Source of the DNA: a virus | Taxonomy: Duplodnaviria > Caudoviricetes | Direction: 5' to 3' (one strand) | Virus record (IMG/VR): IMGVR_UViG_3300031910_000003 | Coordinates: 4,702 to 68,701 of that record | DNA length: 64,000 nt | Shown here: piece after piece, positions 12,899 to 63,949 of the stretch | How positions within the stretch are numbered: position 1 is the first letter of the stretch | Layout of the letters: every line of letters begins with the position of its first letter | Program-made: the position numbers and the translations under genes | The notes under the pieces: generated by a model | The model's input: the letters and a program-made list of their open reading frames with translations, nothing else | Told to the model about the DNA's origin: nothing | The model's database searches: none

Positions 12899-13418
12899 GC
12901 GTCGCCTTCGACGAGCCGCTGCGGCTCGCGGTGCAGCCATTCGTTATGCGTGAAGGGCTCGAGCTCGGCGATCGCCACGCGGCCGTCGCTCGCGGGATAG
13001 CCGCGGCAGGCCATGGTCAGCACCGACTGATCCTCGCGAAACCGCTCAAGGCAGGGGTCGCACAGCACCGCGTTGGCGCCGTCGGTCGCCAAGCCGCAGA
13101 CAAAGCATCCCCAGCCGTGCCCGGACACCTGGGCGCGCTTGTCGAGCATGATCATGTTGCGGACACCCTCGGTCGTCTCGCACACGCAGCACGCGCCGAA
13201 GTCGGGCGTCTCGTGCTCTTCCGGCTCGACCTCGGCGACGGGGACCTCCTCGAGCTCGGCGGCAAAGCGCGCCAAGGTCACCTCGTCGTGGGTCTGCGGC
13301 GAGACCGCCGCGACGAGCGCGACGACCGGGATCCCGCTCTCGGTCATGCCCTCCCAGCGCCGCGCGCGGACGCCGGCGTCGATCTCGACGATGACCGGGG
13401 TGCTCTCGAGGGTGATCT
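12859..13418 (-). CDS. Cys-rich hypothetical protein (start uncertain)
   Basis: CCVC, CFVC and CDPC motifs; no canonical start after the RBS. Confidence 0.55.
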
Positions 13419-44114: not shown

Positions 44115-45677
44115 TTACCAGTGGGCGTGTCGCCCGTTGTTCCACAGCTGCAGCACGATCGTGTTGACGTTGGTGCCGACCGAGGCGAACGAGCATGGCG
44201 GCAGATCATCCCACCGCCCGTTCTTCTCCTTGACCAGCGCGCGCAGTGCCGTGGCCTTCTTCGACTCGCGGAACTCGGTGCCGGCCGACATGATCGCGAC
44301 CAGCTGCCCCTCCGGCTTCAAGAACTTCATCGCATGCGTCACGTGGTCGACGTCGCGCTCCAGATCAAAGGGCGGGTTCATCACAACGCAGTCGTAAAGC
44401 CGCTTCGGGTCCGGCTGCATCTGCAGAAAGTCGCCGCACCAGACCTTGCGATAGAGCCGCTCGGCGCGCAACGCGCGCGCCAGCTTCGGCTGGATCTCGA
44501 CGCAGTCGACCCGGTGGTTGAAGGGATAGGACCGGTCCTCGTCGCGGAACTTGTTGCCGACGTGGCCGGCGGTCGCGCAGCGGCGCGCCAGGTTGCCGGT
44601 GCCGGCCGAGGGCTCCAGGATCGAGAGCGGCGGCTTGTCCGGGTCACGCCACAGCGCGACCTTTGAGATCAGGTATTCGGCCGCCGCGTCCGGTGTCGGG
44701 AAGAACCCAAAGCGCCGCGCCACTGTCGTCTTGCGCTTGGCGAACAGGTCTTCCTGGGTGTGCGCGTCGGCGATGACCTCGCCATACCACTCGGCCAGTA
44801 GCTTGTTGACCTTGCACACCAGATCGTTGCGCTTGAACCAGAGATGCGCGTTGCCGTTCTTGTAGCCCTCGATCTTGAAGTATTCGGTTTGCGTCGTGCT
44901 CTGCTTTGGGCCGTAGCCGCCTTCGCGGCGATCCTGCTCGAGCTGCCAAACGCCGGTGCCATACTGCGCGCCGATATGCCCGCCATTGTCGAGGACCGCA
45001 AAGGTGCGCTCGATGTCGAGCAGCGTGTCGCGCATCGGGCCGTAGCTCAGCCCACCGCCAAAATCGCGGAAGGCGTAAGTCAGGATGATCCGCGAGCCGA
45101 TCTTGAACCCGTCGTGGCTGCGGAAGCGGCGATCGAGCTTTGAGAACGCATTGGCGATGCCGCGCCGGAAGATCGTATCGGCGTCCATCGCGAACTGCTG
45201 GATCGTCGCATAGATGTTGTCGACGGTGACCGGCGGCATGCCCTCGCCGAGATCCTCGGGATGGATCACCTGCCCCTTGTCCCAGGCGCCGCGCCGCTCG
45301 ACCCGGTCGGGCAGGTAGCGCATCTGCTGGCGCAGCTTCTCTTTGGCCTCGGTATCCATCAGCCGCTCGAGATCGGTGCGCTGCACGACATAGGACCACA
45401 CACCAAGATCGGTCAGCCGCCGGGCGACGCGTTGGTACAGCTCGCGGTCCGGCAGCTTGACGGCCTTGTGGAAGTCCTGAACTTCGTGGACGCTGCTCTC
45501 GATCAAGGGTTTGGCGTCGCCGGTCGCGCGCTGGGCCATCGCGTGCGCGGCCTTGATCGCGGTGTCGGCCTGCTCGATCGCGGTAAAGGCCTGGTCGTAG
45601 AGCTCGAGCGCCTTGTTGCGGTAGCCGACGATCTCCTCGACCGTCGAGCGCGGAATCAGTTCACGTGCTGCACTCAC
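44115..45677 (-). CDS. DUF4942-like domain + class I SAM N6-adenine methyltransferase
   Basis: FFPTP; ILEPSAGTGNL (motif I); VMNPPF (motif IV); N-terminal F.I..YKNGNAHLWF. Confidence 0.88.
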   Translation of the reverse strand: MSAARELIPRSTVEEIVGYRNKALELYDQAFTAIEQADTAIKAAHAMAQRATGDAKPLIESSVHEVQDFHKAVKLPDRELYQRVARRLTDLGVWSYVVQRTDLERLMDTEAKEKLRQQMRYLPDRVERRGAWDKGQVIHPEDLGEGMPPVTVDNIYATIQQFAMDADTIFRRGIANAFSKLDRRFRSHDGFKIGSRIILTYAFRDFGGGLSYGPMRDTLLDIERTFAVLDNGGHIGAQYGTGVWQLEQDRREGGYGPKQSTTQTEYFKIEGYKNGNAHLWFKRNDLVCKVNKLLAEWYGEVIADAHTQEDLFAKRKTTVARRFGFFPTPDAAAEYLISKVALWRDPDKPPLSILEPSAGTGNLARRCATAGHVGNKFRDEDRSYPFNHRVDCVEIQPKLARALRAERLYRKVWCGDFLQMQPDPKRLYDCVVMNPPFDLERDVDHVTHAMKFLKPEGQLVAIMSAGTEFRESKKATALRALVKEKNGRWDDLPPCSFASVGTNVNTIVLQLWNNGRHAHW

Positions 45678-51527: not shown

Positions 51528-52136
51528 CTATTTCTTGCGGCTTTCGAGCCAGGATCGAGGGACGACCGGGACGTCTGGCTCAACACCCGGTCGGGGAACG
51601 ACGTGAGTCGGTGGTGGCTTGGTGACCGGTTGACGCGGTTGCTTGCCGCCGCGCGGCGGTGACAGTTGGAGCTCGGGCACCTTGATGCCGAGCGTCTCTT
51701 CGAACCATACCGCGACGAGCCGGCGATGGCACCAGTTCTGTGGCACGCTGAACGGTGGCACTTCCCAGCACAGCAGCACCGGCTCTTCGGGTGCGACGAG
51801 CGCGACCAGCTCGGCATAGACCTGCTTGGGGTCGAGCCGCCCCAGCATCTCGCCGTACAACTCGCAATACCGCTCGTAGCTGACGCTGTTGAACCACGGC
51901 CCAGGCGCCAGCTTCGAGTACATGCGGTAGCCTGCCGGGTGATTGCGCGGCGCAAACCGCGCGATGCTGATCCGGCCGGGGCCGCTGTAGGTTCGGAACG
52001 AGCTTGTCTTCACCGCAACGCCTTTCCTTAGTGCCCGTGCAATTGTAGCACGTGACGGCGGCACTGGCACGGTGGTTGCGCGTGTCGCGACGATCGCCGC
52101 GGCAATCAGCTCCAGGTCACTGATTGGCTTGGCCAT
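51528..52136 (-). CDS. DUF488-like protein
   Basis: RISIAR.AP..LAP..Y..LD..VLLCWE..CHRRLVA.W. Confidence 0.75.
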   Translation of the reverse strand: MAKPISDLELIAAAIVATRATTVPVPPSRATIARALRKGVAVKTSSFRTYSGPGRISIARFAPRNHPAGYRMYSKLAPGPWFNSVSYERYCELYGEMLGRLDPKQVYAELVALVAPEEPVLLCWEVPPFSVPQNWCHRRLVAVWFEETLGIKVPELQLSPPRGGKQPRQPVTKPPPTHVVPRPGVEPDVPVVPRSWLESRKK

Positions 52137-57123: not shown

Positions 57124-57419
57124 GCGCCCGGCCCCCGGCGTTGCAGCCGTGTCGCCAGCCGGGCCCGCCACTGATTTGTGGCCTCGTCGATCTCGCGCGC
57201 GATGCGCTCGCATTTCGCGCAGGTGCACGGCTGCGGGTCGGTCCACTGCTCGGCGCAGTAGGAGCGATAGAGCGCCTTGGCGACGCCCTCTTGCACGTCT
57301 GGGCTCTCGTTCGGGAAGTGGAAACGCGCGAGCGAGTGCGCCTCCTCCTGGGTGACCGCGTACACCGGTCCGATGTCGGACGCGATTTGGTCGGCCTTTA
57401 CGTCATACTCGTCGTACAT
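57120..57419 (-). CDS. First gene of the leftward module array
   Basis: Leader motif at 57427. Confidence 0.65.
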   Translation of the reverse strand: MYDEYDVKADQIASDIGPVYAVTQEEAHSLARFHFPNESPDVQEGVAKALYRSYCAEQWTDPQPCTCAKCERIAREIDEATNQWRARLATRLQRRGPGA

Positions 57420-57465
57420 ACGATTGCTCCTCGGAAGGAATTAGTGAGCAATAACAACAACTTAG

Positions 57466-57495
57466 AGTGTAGCACAAAGTACCATAAATGCACAG
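57466..57495 (-). promoter_or_regulatory. Leftward promoter
   Basis: CTGTGC-N18-(TGc)TACACT. Confidence 0.6.
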
Positions 57496-57516
57496 GTTTT
57501 TTGTTCATCGGGCTTG

Positions 57517-57525
57517 TGCTAAGCT
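57517..57525 (+). promoter_or_regulatory. Extended -10 rightward promoter
   Basis: TGcTAAGCT; predicted +1 near 57532; no clear -35. Confidence 0.5.
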
Positions 57526-57531
57526 GGTGCT

Positions 57532-57621
57532 GCTTCTCGGAAGGAAGCACGGGCGTCCCCGGCTTCGCCTTTAAGGTCCGGGGATTGAGCGGCCGCGGGT
57601 CTCGCCTGCGGCCGTTCTTTT
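57532..57621 (+). ncRNA. Predicted three-hairpin sRNA antisense to the leader motif
   Basis: GCTTC-TCGGAAG-GAAGC; TCCCCGG..CCGGGGA; GAGCGGCCGCGGG..CCTGCGGCCGTTC followed by TTTT. Confidence 0.55.
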
Positions 57622-57629
57622 GTGAAAAT

Positions 57630-57695
57630 GCGGCGACTGTAGCAGACAGCGAGGTCCCCCTCGTTGGCCGGGTGCGAGTCCCGGTAGCCGCTCCA
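57630..57695 (+). ncRNA. tRNA-like RNA lacking a 7-nt anticodon loop
   Basis: Acceptor stem GCGGCGA (or GCGACTG)/TAGCCGC; T-arm CCGGG-TGCGAGT-CCCGG; T-CCA end; CGAGG-TCCC-CCTCG hairpin. Confidence 0.65.
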
Positions 57696-57727
57696 GTTCA
57701 TTGCGCGCGATTGATTGCGGGGAGCTG

Positions 57728-59080
57728 ATGTTCGTCGGCGCGGTCCCCAAGGAGTTTATTGCGCAGATCCTCGATGTCGTGCCGTTTGACCAGTGGGGTG
57801 GTGTGCATGTCTGCTGCTCCGGCTCGTTCCGGCCGGAAGTGGCATTGCGGCAGCGCTACCCGGATTTGCCCATTGTCGGCAACGATGTCTCATTGCTGTC
57901 CGTCGCGATCGGCGAATTGGCAGTCGGGCGCTTGCTCGAGTTTCGCTTCCGCGAGCGCCTAGCACCGCTCGAGGAGATCCTCGCCGGCTGCGACCAGACG
58001 GACCGCGTCGCCGCCGTGCTGATCGCGCAGGAGATGGCCGTCTATCGCGGCCGCAATGCGCACGCGCAGGGGATGTTCGAGCATTACCTGGCGCATTTTG
58101 AAGCCTTTCTTGCGCCGGCCCGCGACAAGCTCGTGACGCTCGTCCGCGATCTTGCGTCGACCGATTTCTTTGCCGGCGATTTCCGTGTGCACGCGGCGCG
58201 CGCGGCCGCGGCCGGCGCCGGTATCCTGGCGTTCCCGCCGACTTACAAAAACGGCTACGAGCGCATCTACAAATTTCTCGGCGACAATGTCGAGTGGGCG
58301 CAGCCGCCCTATGACATCTGGGACCCGGCCGAGCTCGAAGAATGGTTGCGCGGCATCGACGACGCGGGTCAGCGCTATTGCGTGCTCGCCGATCGATTGC
58401 TCCCCAGCTTTACGCCGGCGATCCGCTACGACAATGCGAGCGGGCGCAAGACGGTGTGGGGCTATACCGACCAGAGCGGCTCGTCATTGCGTGGCAAGTC
58501 GGCCGCGGAAGTGCCGTTTCAGTATCGCGCGGTGCAGCCGGCGCGCCTCGGCCCGAAGACCCAGGTCAGCCTCGTGCAGGTCGAGGCGGGCCACATGACG
58601 TTTCTCAAGAACCAATATCTCGCGCGCGGCATCAAGCACGTACCGGGGATGCTTAATTTTCTCGTCATGCTCGGTGACGAGCTCGCCGGCGGCTTCATCT
58701 ATTCGCGCTCGCGCATGAACCCGGAGACCGAGCTCTACCTGCTCTCGGACTTTTCGATCGTGCGTGAGGGCCGCATCGCCAAACTGGTGGCGTTGCTCGC
58801 GACCTCGCGGCTGGCTGTGGACGTGGCGCGCAAGCGCTTTATGTCGCCGCTCGACGAGATCTGGACCACTGTTTTCACCGACAAGCCGGTCAGCATGAAA
58901 TATCGCGGTGTCTTCGAATTGAAGGCCCGCAAGCCCGGCTTTCTCCAATACATGTCACCGATCAGGAATGAGACCCCGAATGAGCTCTACCGAGAATGGT
59001 TCAAGCGCTACGGTAGGAGTGCCCAAGCTCGAAACGCGGGTCAGAAAGGTGCCGATCAGCCGGCTCGAGAGGCTGCCTGA
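57728..59080 (+). CDS. Putative DNA-modification enzyme (adenine-MTase-like N-terminus, GNAT-like C-terminus)
   Basis: VHVCCSGSFRPE..NDVSLLS; FPPTYKNGYE; YLLSDF..KLVALLA..TTVFTDKPVSMKYRG; GGGGAG RBS; resembles a phage family I recall as a putative antirestriction adenine methyltransferase (not searched). Confidence 0.6.
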   Translation: MFVGAVPKEFIAQILDVVPFDQWGGVHVCCSGSFRPEVALRQRYPDLPIVGNDVSLLSVAIGELAVGRLLEFRFRERLAPLEEILAGCDQTDRVAAVLIAQEMAVYRGRNAHAQGMFEHYLAHFEAFLAPARDKLVTLVRDLASTDFFAGDFRVHAARAAAAGAGILAFPPTYKNGYERIYKFLGDNVEWAQPPYDIWDPAELEEWLRGIDDAGQRYCVLADRLLPSFTPAIRYDNASGRKTVWGYTDQSGSSLRGKSAAEVPFQYRAVQPARLGPKTQVSLVQVEAGHMTFLKNQYLARGIKHVPGMLNFLVMLGDELAGGFIYSRSRMNPETELYLLSDFSIVREGRIAKLVALLATSRLAVDVARKRFMSPLDEIWTTVFTDKPVSMKYRGVFELKARKPGFLQYMSPIRNETPNELYREWFKRYGRSAQARNAGQKGADQPAREAA

Positions 59081-59732
59081 AAACCCGCGCTACATGACGT
59101 CGCTGCAGTTCGAGCGGCTGACCCAGAACATCAAGCGCGACGGGGCACTGACCAGCCTGCCGCTGGTCTACGATCTGATTGGCGACGATAGTGGGCCGCT
59201 GCTGGTGCTGTCGGGCAACCACCGGGTCGACGCGGCTGAAGCCGCCGGACTGACCGAGATCGACGTGGTCGAGATCATCACCCGGATCGATGATGACCGG
59301 CGCCGAGCGATCGCGCTGTCGCACAATGCGATTGTCGGCCAGGACGATCCGAACCGCCTGCGCGCGTTTTACGAAAGCCTGTCGCTGGCGCTCAAAGAAT
59401 ATACCGGTCTGACCGAGGACAGCTTCAAGGTGCCGACCCTCGACATCGCCGCACTCAGCGTGCGGCCGCCGCTGTTTGAGCAGATGGTGGTCGACTTCCT
59501 GCCGCAGAGCGCAGAGATCTTTCGCGAGGCGCTGAAGCGCATCAAAGCCGGCACGGTCCCGCCGACTGTGCTGGTCGGACGCTTCGAGGACTTCGACGCG
59601 TTCTTCGAGGCGACGATGCGCACCAAGAAACAGACCAATGTCCACAATGCCGCAATGGCGCTGCGCATGATGGCCGAACTGGCGATCGAGCGGCTCGACC
59701 AGATCGAGGGCGCGGGTGACCGAGAAGTTTAA
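58980..59732 (+). CDS. ParB/Srx-like protein
   Basis: VPISRL..NPRYM..L..NIKRDG..PLV..VLSGNHRV.AA. Confidence 0.85.
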   Translation: MSSTENGSSATVGVPKLETRVRKVPISRLERLPENPRYMTSLQFERLTQNIKRDGALTSLPLVYDLIGDDSGPLLVLSGNHRVDAAEAAGLTEIDVVEIITRIDDDRRRAIALSHNAIVGQDDPNRLRAFYESLSLALKEYTGLTEDSFKVPTLDIAALSVRPPLFEQMVVDFLPQSAEIFREALKRIKAGTVPPTVLVGRFEDFDAFFEATMRTKKQTNVHNAAMALRMMAELAIERLDQIEGAGDREV

Positions 59733-60150
59733 GCTCGAGCACGTCAAGGACGCACTGCGCGCGTCCGGCGGCATCGTCATTGGTGCGGCCAATAAGCTCG
59801 AGCAGGCCTATGGCTCATGTGCACCCGCGACGGTGCGCAATTACATCAGGCGTCACCCCTCGCTCCAACGCTTTCGCGACGAGATCGTCGAGGACACGCT
59901 CGATCTGGCGGAGACCGCGCTGATCAAGGGCATCGCTGCCGACAACATGACAGCGGTCATCTTCTACTTGAAGACCAAAGGCAGAGAGCGCGGCTATGTC
60001 GAACGCGTGGGCTATGTCGACAAGGACAACCAGCCTGCCAATCCCGCCGATGCGCAACACCAATATGTCGTAGTGCTTCCAGACAATGGCCGGGAGTATA
60101 GTGACGCTGACGACGAGCTCACCGAAGCCGACGCCGACGATACCGGCTAA
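59716..60150 (+). CDS. terS: Terminase small subunit (HTH)
   Basis: AL..SGG.V..AA..L..RNY..LDLAE..L...I..N.TA.IFYLKTKG..RGY.ER; directly upstream of TerL. Confidence 0.8.
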   Translation: MTEKFKLEHVKDALRASGGIVIGAANKLEQAYGSCAPATVRNYIRRHPSLQRFRDEIVEDTLDLAETALIKGIAADNMTAVIFYLKTKGRERGYVERVGYVDKDNQPANPADAQHQYVVVLPDNGREYSDADDELTEADADDTG

Positions 60151-61651
60151 CGCGATCCAGCTGAAGCCGCAGCCCGGGCCGCAGACCACATTCATCACGA
60201 GCAAGGCTGACATCGCGATCTATGGCGGCGCTGCCGGCGCCGGCAAGACCTATGGGCTGTTGCTCGAGGCCGCACGGTACTTGCCGCGCACACCGGCGTT
60301 TGATGCGGTGCTGTTCCGCCGCACGACCCCACAAATCACCAACCCTGGTGCGGTGTGGGACGAAGGGCTGCGCTTTTTTACGAAGATCGGCGGCGAGCCG
60401 CGCACGGGGCACCACGAGTTCCTCTGGGCGGGTGGCGGCAAGCTGCGCATGGCGCACTTGGTCGCCGAGCTCACTGTGCTCGACTGGCACGGTTCACAAC
60501 TGGCACTGATCCTGTTCGACGAGCTGACGCAGTTCACCGCGTATCAGTTCTGGTACATGCTCAGCCGCAACCGGTCGACCTGCGGGGTCCGGCCCTATGT
60601 GCGGGCCACCTGCAATCCCGACCCGGACTGTTTTGTCGCCGAGCTGATTGCCTGGTGGATCGATCAGGAGACCGGTTACCCGATCCCCGAGCGGGCCGGC
60701 GTGCTGCGCTATTTCGTTCGCCTTGGCGACAAGATCATTTGGGATGACCGGCCGGGGCCGCTGCGCCAATACCTGCCAAAGCTGGAGGACCTGCCGCCCG
60801 GCGTCGATCGGCCGCGCATCAAGTCGCTGACCTTTATTCCGGGCAGGCTGTACGACAACGCCGCGCTGATGCGCAAGGACCCGGATTACCTCGCCAATCT
60901 GTTGGCGATGCCGGTCGTCGAGCGCGAGCGCCTATTGGGGGGCAACTGGAAGATCCGGCCGGCTGCAGGCCTCTATTTCAAGCGCGGCTGGTGCGAGATG
61001 GTCGACGCCTTCCCGGCGTTGCGCGACACCGTGCGCTATTGGGATCTGGCGGCGACCGAGAAGACCCCGGACAACGACCCGGACTGGACCGTCGGCGTCA
61101 AGCTCGGCCGCGACGAGTTTGGCGGGCTCTATGTGCTCGACGTGATCCGCGAACGGGTCGGCCCGTTCGAGGTCGAGCAGCTGTTAAAGAACACGGCGAG
61201 CCAGGACGGCAAGACCTGCAAGATCGGCTGGGGCAAGGACCCGGGCCAGGCCGGCAAGGCGCAGACTCTCAATTACGTGCGCATGCTGGCCGGCTATTGG
61301 GTCATGCCCGAGGCCGAGACCGGCGACAAGGTAACCCGCTTTGGGCCCGCCTCGGCACAGTGCCGTGCCGGCAACGTCAAGATTCTGCGCGGCCCGTGGA
61401 ACGAGGACTTCTTCCGCGCGCTCGAGGGCTTCCCGGACCTGATGCACGACGATGATGTCGACGCGTTCGCCGGTGCCGTCGAGCTGATGCACGCGCAAGC
61501 GCCGGGCATGAACATCTACGAGCTGTATCGGCAACAGGCGGCAGAAGCGGCGGCGGCAGAAGAAGCCAAGCGCGCTGCTCAACCCAAGCCGACGCCGCAG
61601 CCGGGATCGGTGGAGTGGTTTCAGATGATCAACAGCCGCAATACCGAGTGA
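60086..61651 (+). CDS. terL: Terminase large subunit
   Basis: YGGAAGAGKT; LFDELTQF; RATCNP; YWDLAAT..HDDDVDA RNase H-like nuclease. Confidence 0.95.
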   Translation: MAGSIVTLTTSSPKPTPTIPANAIQLKPQPGPQTTFITSKADIAIYGGAAGAGKTYGLLLEAARYLPRTPAFDAVLFRRTTPQITNPGAVWDEGLRFFTKIGGEPRTGHHEFLWAGGGKLRMAHLVAELTVLDWHGSQLALILFDELTQFTAYQFWYMLSRNRSTCGVRPYVRATCNPDPDCFVAELIAWWIDQETGYPIPERAGVLRYFVRLGDKIIWDDRPGPLRQYLPKLEDLPPGVDRPRIKSLTFIPGRLYDNAALMRKDPDYLANLLAMPVVERERLLGGNWKIRPAAGLYFKRGWCEMVDAFPALRDTVRYWDLAATEKTPDNDPDWTVGVKLGRDEFGGLYVLDVIRERVGPFEVEQLLKNTASQDGKTCKIGWGKDPGQAGKAQTLNYVRMLAGYWVMPEAETGDKVTRFGPASAQCRAGNVKILRGPWNEDFFRALEGFPDLMHDDDVDAFAGAVELMHAQAPGMNIYELYRQQAAEAAAAEEAKRAAQPKPTPQPGSVEWFQMINSRNTE

Positions 61652-61657
61652 CCTGAC

Positions 61658-63949
61658 ATGCCGCGCGGTGGAACCCAAACCTCACTCGTCGGGATGGTCA
61701 ATACGCTGATGGCGCCGTTCCGCGGCCGTCAGCCCGGCAGAGGCGCGCCGGTCTACAGCTATGCCACCACGCCTAATGGACGGACCCCGGACATCACCCA
61801 GTTTGCGCCGGTTTTCCAGCCATCGGGCGGGCTCTTTGCACCGGGTTATCCACTGGTGCCGCCCGATTACGAGCGCACCCGCCGCTACAACTTTCCGGTG
61901 GGCATCAACTACATTTATACACCACGCTCGTTTGAGCCGATCGGCTTTGCCGAGCTCAAGGCACTGTCCAATGACGACATCACGCGGCTGTGCATCGAGA
62001 CCCGCAAGGACCAGATCGAAAAGCTCGGCTGGACGATCAAGCCGCGCGACGAGGACGGCCCAAAGAAGTCCGGCACCGACAAGCGCATCCAGCAGCTGAC
62101 CGAGTTCTGGCAATACCCCGACGGGATCACGCCATTTGCGACGTGGTTGCGCCAATTGATGGATCAGGTGCTGGTCATCGACGCGCCGGCGATCGAACCA
62201 CGGCGCAATCGCGGTGGCGACGTCATCGGGCTCGACATCATCGACGGGTCGACGATCAAGGTGCTGATCGACGACACCGGGCGCCGCCCGCGGCCGCCGG
62301 CTCCGGCTTTTGAGCAGATCATTCACGGTCGGCCATGGGTATTGCTCGAGGACGGCACCCGCGCCAACACCGAGGAAGGCGAGATCGTTGACCAGTTCAC
62401 CGATCAGGAGCTGATCTATTTCCCGCGCAATCAGCGCGCCGACCACCTCTACGGCTTCTCGCCGGTCGAGCAGATCGTGCTGACGATCAACACCTCGATC
62501 CGCCGCGGCGTGATGCAGCTGCAGCACTTCACGCAGGGCAATGTGCCGCCCGGTCTGGTCAATGCGCCGACGGGCTGGACACCCGAGCAGATCGCACAGT
62601 TTCAGGACTGGTTTGACGGCAAGCTCGCCGGCAACACGGGCGAGCGCACCAAGCTCCTATGGGGACCCGAGGGCGCCAAATACCAGTCGATCAAGGAAGC
62701 GCCGCTCAAAGACGATTTCGACGAGTGGCGGGCCCGGGTGATTTGCTTCGCCTTTAGCCTGCCGCCGACCGCCTTCACCAAGCAGGTCAACCGCAACACC
62801 GCCGAGAGCGCGCAGGAAGCGGCACTCGAGGAGGGCCTGGCGCCGCTGATGGGCTGGGTCAAAAGGCTGGTCGACGGCATCATCCAGCGCCGCATGGGCC
62901 ACCCGGACCTCGAATTCTCCTGGTCGGACATCGCTCCGGTCGACCCGAAAGACCAAGCCGACATGCTGGTCGAGCTGGTCGGCGCCGGGCTGGAGACCTT
63001 GAACGAAGCGCGCGACCTCTTGGGCCTCGACCCCATCGAGGGCGGCGACGAGATCATGTTCAAGACCGGCACCGGTCCGGTCACCCTCGACAGCATCCTC
63101 AACCCGCCCGAGCCGCCGCCGGTCGTGGTGCCGGCTGGTGCGGGTGTAGTCGCGCGAAATCGACCGCCAGCCGCCGGCGGAAAATCGCCGCCGTCGAAAA
63201 ACGGCGCACGGCCGTCGAAGAACGGCACAAAACCGCCGGCAGGCGGCAAAAAGCAGCCGACGACGGCAAAACCGGAGAAGCCCGAGGGCGGCGCCGAGGC
63301 CGGCGGGAAGGCGAAACCGGGCAAGGGCGGGGTAGGCAAAGTCGCCGGCGACCCTCTTCGCCAAGCGGCGGGAGAGCCGCCGCAACATAGCCTTGCTGGA
63401 CCGGACCAAGACCCGCTTGCAGACGAAGCTCGAGCGCTTCTTCGCCGAGCGCGCGCGGGACGTGGCGCGGCAGTTGGCCAAGGAGATGCGGCTCGAGGGC
63501 TGGGAGAGGCTGTAGACCTGCCGCCGCCGTGGCGCTTGATCAGCGGCATCGTTAGCAAAGCCGGCGAAGACAGGGGGCATGTTGCCGCCGAGAACGCGCG
63601 GCCGGTCGAGTTGCCGCTGGCCGACGACATTACGGAAGCTGACATTCGGCACATTGCCTGGCAGATCGTTCGCGATGCGATGGCGCGCGGCGAGGCGCCG
63701 AAGACGCGGACCCGCACGGTGCCGATCGGCGACCTGGTAGCGACCCAGCGTGTCGTCGACGACGAGCGGGTCGAGGACGACGCGGCCGATTACCGCCAGC
63801 ACGGCCAGGGCGCGGAGAAGCCGCTGGTCGTCGAGCGTCAGGGCAAATGGTACATCCTGGCCGGGCATCACCACGCCGAGGGCGCGCTCGACGAGGGTGC
63901 CAGCGAGCTGCGGGTCGAGGAGCTACTGCAAAGCGGAGCCGACGAGTAG
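61658..63949 (+). CDS. Portal protein with long linker and C-terminal ParB-like domain
   Basis: Portal motifs (LD..DG.TIK..D..GRRP..PA..Q..G; YGFSPVEQ; G..P.G; TLNE.R..LG..P) to about aa 490; C-terminal VPIGDLVATQ..PLVV..G.WYILAGHHH. Confidence 0.9.
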   Translation: MPRGGTQTSLVGMVNTLMAPFRGRQPGRGAPVYSYATTPNGRTPDITQFAPVFQPSGGLFAPGYPLVPPDYERTRRYNFPVGINYIYTPRSFEPIGFAELKALSNDDITRLCIETRKDQIEKLGWTIKPRDEDGPKKSGTDKRIQQLTEFWQYPDGITPFATWLRQLMDQVLVIDAPAIEPRRNRGGDVIGLDIIDGSTIKVLIDDTGRRPRPPAPAFEQIIHGRPWVLLEDGTRANTEEGEIVDQFTDQELIYFPRNQRADHLYGFSPVEQIVLTINTSIRRGVMQLQHFTQGNVPPGLVNAPTGWTPEQIAQFQDWFDGKLAGNTGERTKLLWGPEGAKYQSIKEAPLKDDFDEWRARVICFAFSLPPTAFTKQVNRNTAESAQEAALEEGLAPLMGWVKRLVDGIIQRRMGHPDLEFSWSDIAPVDPKDQADMLVELVGAGLETLNEARDLLGLDPIEGGDEIMFKTGTGPVTLDSILNPPEPPPVVVPAGAGVVARNRPPAAGGKSPPSKNGARPSKNGTKPPAGGKKQPTTAKPEKPEGGAEAGGKAKPGKGGVGKVAGDPLRQAAGEPPQHSLAGPDQDPLADEARALLRRARAGRGAAVGQGDAARGLGEAVDLPPPWRLISGIVSKAGEDRGHVAAENARPVELPLADDITEADIRHIAWQIVRDAMARGEAPKTRTRTVPIGDLVATQRVVDDERVEDDAADYRQHGQGAEKPLVVERQGKWYILAGHHHAEGALDEGASELRVEELLQSGADE

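Follow-up and report, generated by a model that had tools for sequence, protein, structure and literature searches.

A miniature tRNA-Gly-like RNA linked to a phage Dam-like/GNAT fusion gene, a candidate glycyl carrier for DNA modification

The Mom protein of phage Mu modifies double-stranded DNA at N6 of adenine with glycine that it takes from Gly-tRNAGly (Silva et al., Nat Commun 2026, PMC13219725). All tRNAGly isoacceptors serve Mom as donors, so it is probably the 3′ acceptor end that is recognised, and the use of the translation tRNA pool might be costly; the co-substrate of Mom was not predictable from its structure (PMC13219725). Glycine also reaches a nontranslational use in Staphylococcus aureus, where the non-proteogenic tRNAGly NP1-3 feed the GNAT-fold transferases FmhB/FemAB (Fem). 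In their T loop, UUC is replaced by UGC or UGU; they have altered D and T regions, bind EF-Tu weakly and retain the GlyRS identity set (PMC7826273). The determinants of glycylation by GlyRS are G1-C72, C2-G71, U73, C35 and C36 (PMC7826273).

We analyzed a phage locus that shares features with both systems. The window, i.e., the whole stretch of 64,000 nt under analysis, belongs to an IMG/VR virus record of 68.7 kb, and the host of its phage is probably an alphaproteobacterium. It contains a 66-nt tRNA-like RNA followed on the same strand, 32 nt past the RNA end, by the ATG (57728) of a gene coding for a Dam-like domain fused to a GNAT domain. Like Mu Mom (PF25680, PDB 8bv8), the fusion protein would be a late phage enzyme of GNAT fold that uses tRNA-Gly-borne glycine, with N6 of adenine in double-stranded DNA as its presumed target before packaging. 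Given that Mom transfers glycine from tRNA and that an RNA with GlyRS-type features is linked to the fusion gene, this RNA may serve as a codon-blind glycyl carrier for a Mom-like, yet independent, DNA modification. Specifically, we propose, with a probability of roughly 0.6, that it is a codon-blind mini-tRNA derived from tRNA-Gly and acts as the dedicated glycyl carrier of the enzyme encoded just downstream. A literature search returned no description of this RNA, of a function for PF22555/PF22559 proteins or of the set of genes discussed below, and no account of the RNA was found in the literature on phage tRNA-like RNAs in connection with Mom or GNAT enzymes.

A tRNA-like RNA at the head of the packaging operon

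Sequence inspection and RNAfold predictions of the element agree with the anatomy described in an earlier note on this DNA, i.e., a 7-bp acceptor stem with one mismatch, a T arm, a discriminator T and encoded CCA, a miniature D arm and a TCCC loop (Table 1). A four-way junction is both the minimum free energy (MFE) and the centroid structure at -32.7 kcal/mol (z = -2.8). One in 200 shuffled versions of the element folded equally well, and the junction still formed when 221 nt of context were included. The canonical 7-nt anticodon loop, U33, the 8-9 linker and the variable loop are all missing from this RNA. The earlier description of the RNA as anticodon-less therefore holds for the canonical loop but not for the triplet, since the UCCC tetraloop contains the glycine anticodon UCC. 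The G6.A67 mismatch (57635/57686) is kept throughout the clade of the window, and one related locus, L108, has G6-C67 instead.

The RNA shares the acceptor stem, U73, the encoded CCA, the 5-bp/7-nt T arm and the four-way junction with canonical tRNA-Gly (RF00005). Unlike the latter, it combines an 8-bp stem and a 4-nt loop in the anticodon position with a D arm reduced to three pairs and a 3-nt loop, and it is missed by ARAGORN and RF00005. ARAGORN called 0 tRNA genes in the whole 64,000-nt window, Rfam gave no match at the gathering score, and no Rfam tRNA match was obtained at E<=10 in 601 nt. Three ORFs that run across the element, at 57141-57728 (+), 57519-57701 (-) and 57571-57750 (-), were judged to be spurious high-GC frames because conservation follows a base-paired RNA pattern.

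The element lies between a candidate sRNA and the late operon, as had been noted. A terminator-like hairpin at the 3′ end of the former stops 12 nt short of the RNA 5′ end, and the cassette formed by the RNA and the fusion gene is the head of the packaging operon, with the terminase and portal genes (60086..63949) downstream. Given the position of the hairpin just before the RNA, expression of the RNA and of the late operon would need read-through from the promoter of the sRNA, processing of a longer transcript or an unrecognised promoter; a sigma-70 promoter scan of the window detected none near the RNA. The fusion gene is followed by a ParB_N-like gene that overlaps its end. A DUF488-N3a-like gene is located 5.6 kb from the cassette, in a leftward operon; its product had no Pfam match at E<0.01 and was recognised by tblastn similarity to a homologue in a related locus.

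Table 1. Coordinates of the RNA element, its parts and the neighbouring features in the window
Feature	Position	Strand	Description and evidence
Mini tRNA-Gly-like RNA	57630..57695	+	66 nt; sequence, MFE fold, R1 score, covariation on A3
Acceptor strands of mini-tRNA	57630-57636 + 57685-57691	+	7 pairs, one G6.A67 mismatch
D mini-hairpin CTG-TAG-CAG	57637-57645	+	3-bp stem, 3-nt loop
Anticodon-position stem of mini-tRNA	57647-57654/57659-57666	+	8 bp
Tetraloop TCCC (UCCC) of mini-tRNA	57655-57658	+	Caps the 8-bp stem
T arm CCGGG/TGCGAGT/CCCGG	57668-57684	+	Perfect 5-bp stem, 7-nt loop UGCGAGU
Discriminator T (U73)	57692	+	Sequence
Encoded CCA of mini-tRNA	57693-57695	+	Sequence
Terminator-like hairpin and U tract	57587..57617	+	14 pairs; 3′ end of upstream sRNA candidate
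Dam-like/GNAT fusion gene	57728..59080	+	450 aa; PF22555 (3e-43), PF22559 (4e-37)
ParB_N-like gene	58968..59732	+	phrog_7405 at 2.6e-53, weak ParB_N; overlaps fusion gene end
DUF488-N3a-like homologue	51528..52136	-	tblastn to L005:1737-2342(-): 49% identity over 118 aa, E 1e-28
Terminase large subunit	60086-61651	+	PHROG and Pfam
Portal	61658-63949	+	PHROG and Pfam

A conserved RNA family that grades into tRNA-Gly

A DNA search of the phage collection with positions 57400-57760 gave no match, and a search of viral contigs with the fusion protein as the single query found no relative. An alignment-based query succeeded: an alignment of 30 fusion-protein homologues (A1) was used to fetch 80 viral and 78 genomic loci. 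With the 86-nt element as a query, nhmmer matched approximately 22 of these loci, every match being on the strand of the gene and nearly full length. A covariance model (R1) was built from 19 sequences (A2), including that of the window. The RNA of the window, a seed member, matched it over model positions 1-66 with 61.6 bits (E about 1e-11), and the model identified 33 of the homologous loci at E<0.01, with full-length, same-strand matches upstream of the fusion-gene homologues. A weak R1 match elsewhere in the window, at 44395-44480 (-) with an E value of 0.22, was taken for noise.

For divergent members, we used a structural descriptor with three requirements, namely, a T arm, T73 and an acceptor of the form GCG...CGC. 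It matched 43 loci on the strand of the gene and 2 on the other strand, and a looser version matched 55 versus 10 loci, with 3 to 7 matches in shuffled sequence. Altogether the RNA was found in about 55-65 of the 158 homologous loci, examined with 2.5-kb flanks. This occupancy of 35-40% is a lower bound because the RNA can be up to 5 kb away. Within the same flanks no RNA was in reach in some clades, e.g., enterobacterial prophages, and many such relatives may rely on a host tRNA or on none.

Covariation was evaluated on 28 distinct R1 matches (A3). Standard pairs made up 96.4% of the cells, compared with 71.8% after shuffling and 41-50% when the partners were slid, although A3 was fitted to the structure of the model, which biases pair counts toward that structure. 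Compensatory changes on both sides were found at 15 of the 20 pairs, with a covariation score of 0.645 vs 0.160, and an unfitted MAFFT alignment already had compensatory changes at 8 of 19 pairs. The earlier note had looked to a covariance model of homologues and to covariation among related phages, and both came out positive. The element is therefore more than a chance structure and is a member of a conserved structured RNA family.

Conservation is uneven along the molecule. Free covariation is seen in A3 at pair 5, in the D stem and the long stem and over most of the T stem, while acceptor pairs 1 to 4 (G-C, C-G, G-C and G-C) are constant in 27-28 of the 28 R1 members. The discriminator is U in all members of the family and the CCA is encoded in 42 of 58 distinct members; the invariance of acceptor and discriminator is unbiased only for R1 and ARAGORN members, as those found with the descriptor were selected on GCG...CGC and T. 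Every member has an NCC triplet (UCC, ACC, GCC or CCC) in the loop at the anticodon position, which comprises 3 to 7 nt. G3-C70 is part of the identity set of Escherichia coli GlyRS, and G1-C72, C2-G71, G3-C70 and U73 are all present in the RNA of the window. The CC of its 4-nt loop represents a putative further determinant, which GlyRS would have to read in a tetraloop. Conservation of the GlyRS identity set implies that these RNAs would be charged.

Other loci link the mini-RNAs to recognisable tRNA genes. ARAGORN, negative for the RNA of the window, called a tRNA-Gly(UCC) next to the ortholog of the fusion gene in four distant loci (L117, L119, L127 and L131) and in the cultured Mycobacterium phage Argie. 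The Argie tRNA-Gly(UCC) is annotated as gene 73 (L183:3893-3964; MK494114.1 51778-51849) and lies 88 nt before the fusion homologue, gene 74. Gordonia phage Clawz (NC_071004.1) harbors an unannotated 74-nt RNA (L184:3823-3896, about 13046-13119 of the genome) in a 219-nt gap ahead of gp29, its Dam-like/GNAT gene, and gp30. The acceptor of this RNA reads GCGCGAC and its loop UUCCG, the T loop has 8 nt, U73 is present and CCA is encoded; it is ARAGORN-negative. The same place in other loci is occupied by intermediates of 69-71 nt, with loops such as CGACCAG in which seven loop bases are retained and U33 is lost, and by 64-66-nt forms, including that of the window, that combine loops of 4-6 nt with stems of 7-8 bp and lack the variable loop. 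The family grades from annotated tRNA-Gly(UCC) to forms of 64-69 nt by decay of the D arm, the variable loop and the 7-nt anticodon loop. When ten related loci were searched against Rfam at E<=5, L119 alone was recognised as a tRNA and the annotated Argie tRNA-Gly was missed. Rfam therefore cannot trace this family, and even the seemingly canonical Argie copy is atypical. In five Planctomycetota loci (L122, L125, L126, L155 and L158), we observed a subfamily of 71-74 nt with a GCGCCGC acceptor and no encoded CCA, a 7-nt loop CCACCAG (ACC triplet, C33 in place of U33) and a T loop of the CTCACGG type.

The D and T loops vary together across members, xxAG in the D loop occurring with UGC in the T loop, GG with UUC and, in one member, ATAT with UGA. 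In this small and partly related sample, such co-variation is suggestive of retained elbow contacts, namely, the 18:55 and 19:56 tertiary contacts. The T loop reads TGCGAGT in the window and TGCAGTT in its clade. With UGC in the T loop, a remodelled D arm and the GlyRS set kept, the RNA of the window resembles NP1-3 of S. aureus. Unlike it, those tRNAs are cellular and full-size, carry UCC in a normal arm and can be called as tRNAs, whereas the phage RNAs are virus-encoded, measure 64-69 nt, lack a variable loop and cap a stem of 7-8 bp with a loop of 4-6 nt. The acceptor of the glycine would also differ, being presumably DNA for the phage RNA versus lipid II for NP1-3. A GNAT-fold transferase may likewise use the RNA of the window, which is genomically linked to a GNAT-fold gene.

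The linked fusion enzyme and its cassette

Searches of whole genomes confirmed the linkage between RNA and enzyme. In five metagenome-assembled genomes (25 Mb), R1 gave 12 matches at E<0.01, 10 of which are on the same strand as, and 0.8-4.9 kb upstream of, a fusion gene or fragment; conversely, 11 of the 12 copies or fragments of the fusion gene in these genomes have such an RNA. One genome contains five prophage copies, each with its own RNA at the equivalent place. Two orphan RNAs, G001:C9:922927-922992 (+) and G004:C5:183149-183214 (+) (L180 and L175), have no detected fusion gene nearby and may be located in decayed prophages. An exact 25-mer of the RNA 3′ half occurs in 12 viral contigs, 11 of which contain the gene, while the twelfth ends at the edge of the locus. 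The linkage holds for enzymes that are 24-30% identical to that of the window and for hosts of several phyla. In two Vicinamibacterales loci (L145:4095-4167 and L149:4095-4167, both +), the RNA, with an ACC loop and the T loop TTCAAGT, is found downstream of the enzyme gene rather than upstream.

In most relatives, the RNA sits behind an AT-rich region of its own, and a gene on the opposite strand separates it from the fusion gene. In most alphaproteobacterial loci this intervening gene codes for approximately 200 aa and matches PF22751 (DUF488-N3a), as the proteins of L005:1737-2342 (-) and L088:1806-2390 (-) do. In 78 of 160 loci, tblastn detected DUF488-like relatives no more than 2.5 kb from the fusion gene; the loci of Argie and Clawz are among them. 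A ParB-like gene comes next after the fusion gene in L005, in Argie (gene 75) and in Clawz (gp30). The ParB-like and DUF488-like genes are conserved members of the cassette.

Homologues of the fusion protein are numerous and retain the two-domain architecture. An AF2 model (mean pLDDT 85.7, pTM 0.57) was compared with known structures. With VIA-align, residues 3-250 superposed best on Mcbe1 (Z 13.2), E. coli Dam (Z 12.4), T4 Dam (Z 12.0) and DpnM (Z 11.3), and residues 274-414 superposed on GNATs. In the latter region Mu Mom (8bv8) reached a Z of 10.2, with an rmsd of 3.2 over 133 residues, which ties with generic GNATs at Z 9.5-10.9, so that Mom is not separated from ordinary acetyltransferases. 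Foldseek returned generic methyltransferase and GNAT matches only, with the rRNA methyltransferase AviRa on top for the N-terminal domain, and a profile search of the sequences of solved structures gave nothing meaningful.

The Dam-like domain has FPPTY (residues 169-173) in place of the DPPY of Dam, retains the glycine-rich motif CSGSF (residues 30-35) and contains an invariant N52-D53. The domain may still bind SAM, or its pocket may now serve a different adenosine. Inspection of the GNAT domain indicated that the Q/RxxGxG/A acetyl-CoA loop is not conserved. We considered whether the fusion enzyme is a Mom homologue and rejected this: HHalign of A1 against Mu Mom gave a probability of 0.2, i.e., no sequence relationship, for which reason the enzyme is not filed under the Mom family, and its Pfam family is PF22559, not PF25680. 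It further differs from Mom in that its GNAT domain is fused to a Dam-like domain, compared with the HTH-like insertion of Mom, and whereas Mom uses host tRNAs, the system of the window comes with its own, presumably non-decoding, RNA and with ParB-like and DUF488-like partners for a chemistry that is putative. The fusion protein is the proposed user of the charged mini-tRNA.

Possible roles of the mini-tRNA

A glycyl carrier could operate as follows. The RNA would be made as part of the late/packaging operon, at whose head it lies, and RNase P would trim its 5′ end, with trimming of the 3′ end at the encoded CCA. Host GlyRS would then charge it through the features found in the RNA, namely, G1-C72, C2-G71, G3-C70, U73 and the anticodon CC. 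The mini-tRNA is predicted to be unable to decode because of its 4-nt loop, the lack of U33, the 3-bp D arm and the UGC T loop, and, by analogy with the non-proteogenic tRNAGly of S. aureus, it would probably be a poor ligand for EF-Tu and the ribosome, such that its glycine is reserved. The Dam-like domain of the fusion enzyme would bind DNA and flip the target adenine, and the GNAT domain would move glycine from the RNA 3′ end to N6 of that adenine, a reaction equivalent to that of Mu Mom with host Gly-tRNAGly. Modification just before packaging would protect the phage DNA from restriction.

A simpler role would be that of a processing or punctuation signal, the RNA never being aminoacylated and its tRNA-like fold serving only to attract RNase P, along with 3′ trimming, to cut the sRNA and leader from the late mRNA. 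P1 C4 and P4 CI are phage regulatory RNAs processed by RNase P, and mascRNA is a tRNA-like processing signal. The RNA of the window probably shares with these a tRNA-like fold within a longer transcript and, by analogy, likely cleavage by RNase P. Unlike it, they are antisense regulators or a 3′-end signal and have no aminoacylation identity set, whereas in the present family the features of a GlyRS substrate are conserved and linked to an enzyme gene. The maturation by RNase P and at the CCA end that the earlier note invoked is plausible, given the intact acceptor/T half, the discriminator U and the encoded CCA; the function as a cassette that it drew from this is not favored. The RNA follows the terminator-like hairpin and ends 32 nt ahead of the ATG of the first late gene, which would suit such a signal; so would the fact that no part of it is better conserved than the acceptor/T half recognised by RNase P. 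RNase P, however, needs neither U73 nor G1-C72, C2-G71 and G3-C70 nor an NCC loop, yet all of these are invariant while other stems covary. Moreover, the enzyme linkage extends across phyla, and in most relatives the RNAs stand alone, 0.8-4.9 kb from the fusion gene and with an opposite gene in between, and thus punctuate nothing. We consider this role improbable. The same applies to the second function offered in the earlier note, a decoy for tRNA nucleases or modification enzymes, here taken more broadly as a sponge or spare that guards the host tRNAGly pool against glycine-tRNA-directed weapons of the host, such as nucleases that cleave tRNAs or GNAT toxins for which Gly-tRNAGly is the target of acetylation. 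Some phages are known to carry tRNAs against tRNA-targeting defences, and the RNA does mimic tRNA-Gly down to the loop triplet. An anticodon loop shrunk to 4-6 nt should, however, spoil the mimicry for anticodon nucleases, no conserved defence-related partner gene adjoins the RNA, and a decoy would need neither the invariant identity set nor a lasting linkage to one enzyme family from actinophages to phages of proteobacteria. A decoy is therefore an equally poor candidate.

Genetic linkage would be explained just as well if the RNA were a bound cofactor, guide or substrate of the fusion enzyme, with the Dam-like pocket holding A76 or modifying an adenine of the RNA, or with the GNAT domain acylating the RNA. 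The position of the rRNA methyltransferase AviRa at the top of the Foldseek matches of the N-terminal domain is in line with an RNA-directed activity. In the structural superpositions, however, this domain is matched best by DNA adenine methylases for which complexes with a flipped base exist (E. coli Dam, T4 Dam and DpnM; Z 11-12), and both the place at the head of the packaging operon and the ParB-like DNA-binding partner suit a DNA target. As conservation of the GlyRS identity set also implies charging, we regard a cofactor or substrate role as unlikely, if slightly easier to entertain than a signal or a decoy. Lastly, phages often integrate into tRNA genes, and an element too deformed for tRNA finders might be a functionless, decaying tRNA pseudogene or the attachment-site remnant of a tRNA-Gly gene. 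This can be dismissed with near confidence: compensatory changes affect three stems, neither strand of the acceptor is missing, the element occupies an internal position in the linear virion genomes of Argie and Clawz, and the five prophage copies in one genome each have their own RNA at the same relative place.

The glycyl carrier thus remains our preferred reading. In its widest form, for which we see about even odds, the locus would encode a self-contained DNA-hypermodification kit independent of Mom, composed of a virus-encoded, codon-blind mini-tRNA charged by host GlyRS, an enzyme in which a base-flipping Dam-like domain is fused to a GNAT for N6-glycylation, and ParB-like and DUF488-like helpers. 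It would include the first viral tRNA taken out of translation and turned into a pure aminoacyl carrier for chemistry on nucleic acids, and it would occur widely in phages of Actinomycetota, Pseudomonadota, Planctomycetota, Chloroflexota, Bacteroidota and others.

The analysis exposes unannotated genes in cultured phages, namely, the RNA of Clawz, and in Argie a tRNA-Gly is annotated at the corresponding position; the hypothesis is directly testable in both. The RNA family may provide natural minimal substrates for dissecting what GlyRS, EF-Tu and aminoacyl transferases need of a tRNA. A likely new anti-restriction modification of DNA is also flagged in many environmental phages and prophages. 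If the proposal is true, tRNA-dependent DNA modification is not peculiar to Mu Mom and has arisen at least twice among GNAT enzymes. Phages would then avoid competition with translation by having a glycine carrier of their own that ribosomes are unable to use, in parallel to the cell-wall tRNAs of staphylococci.
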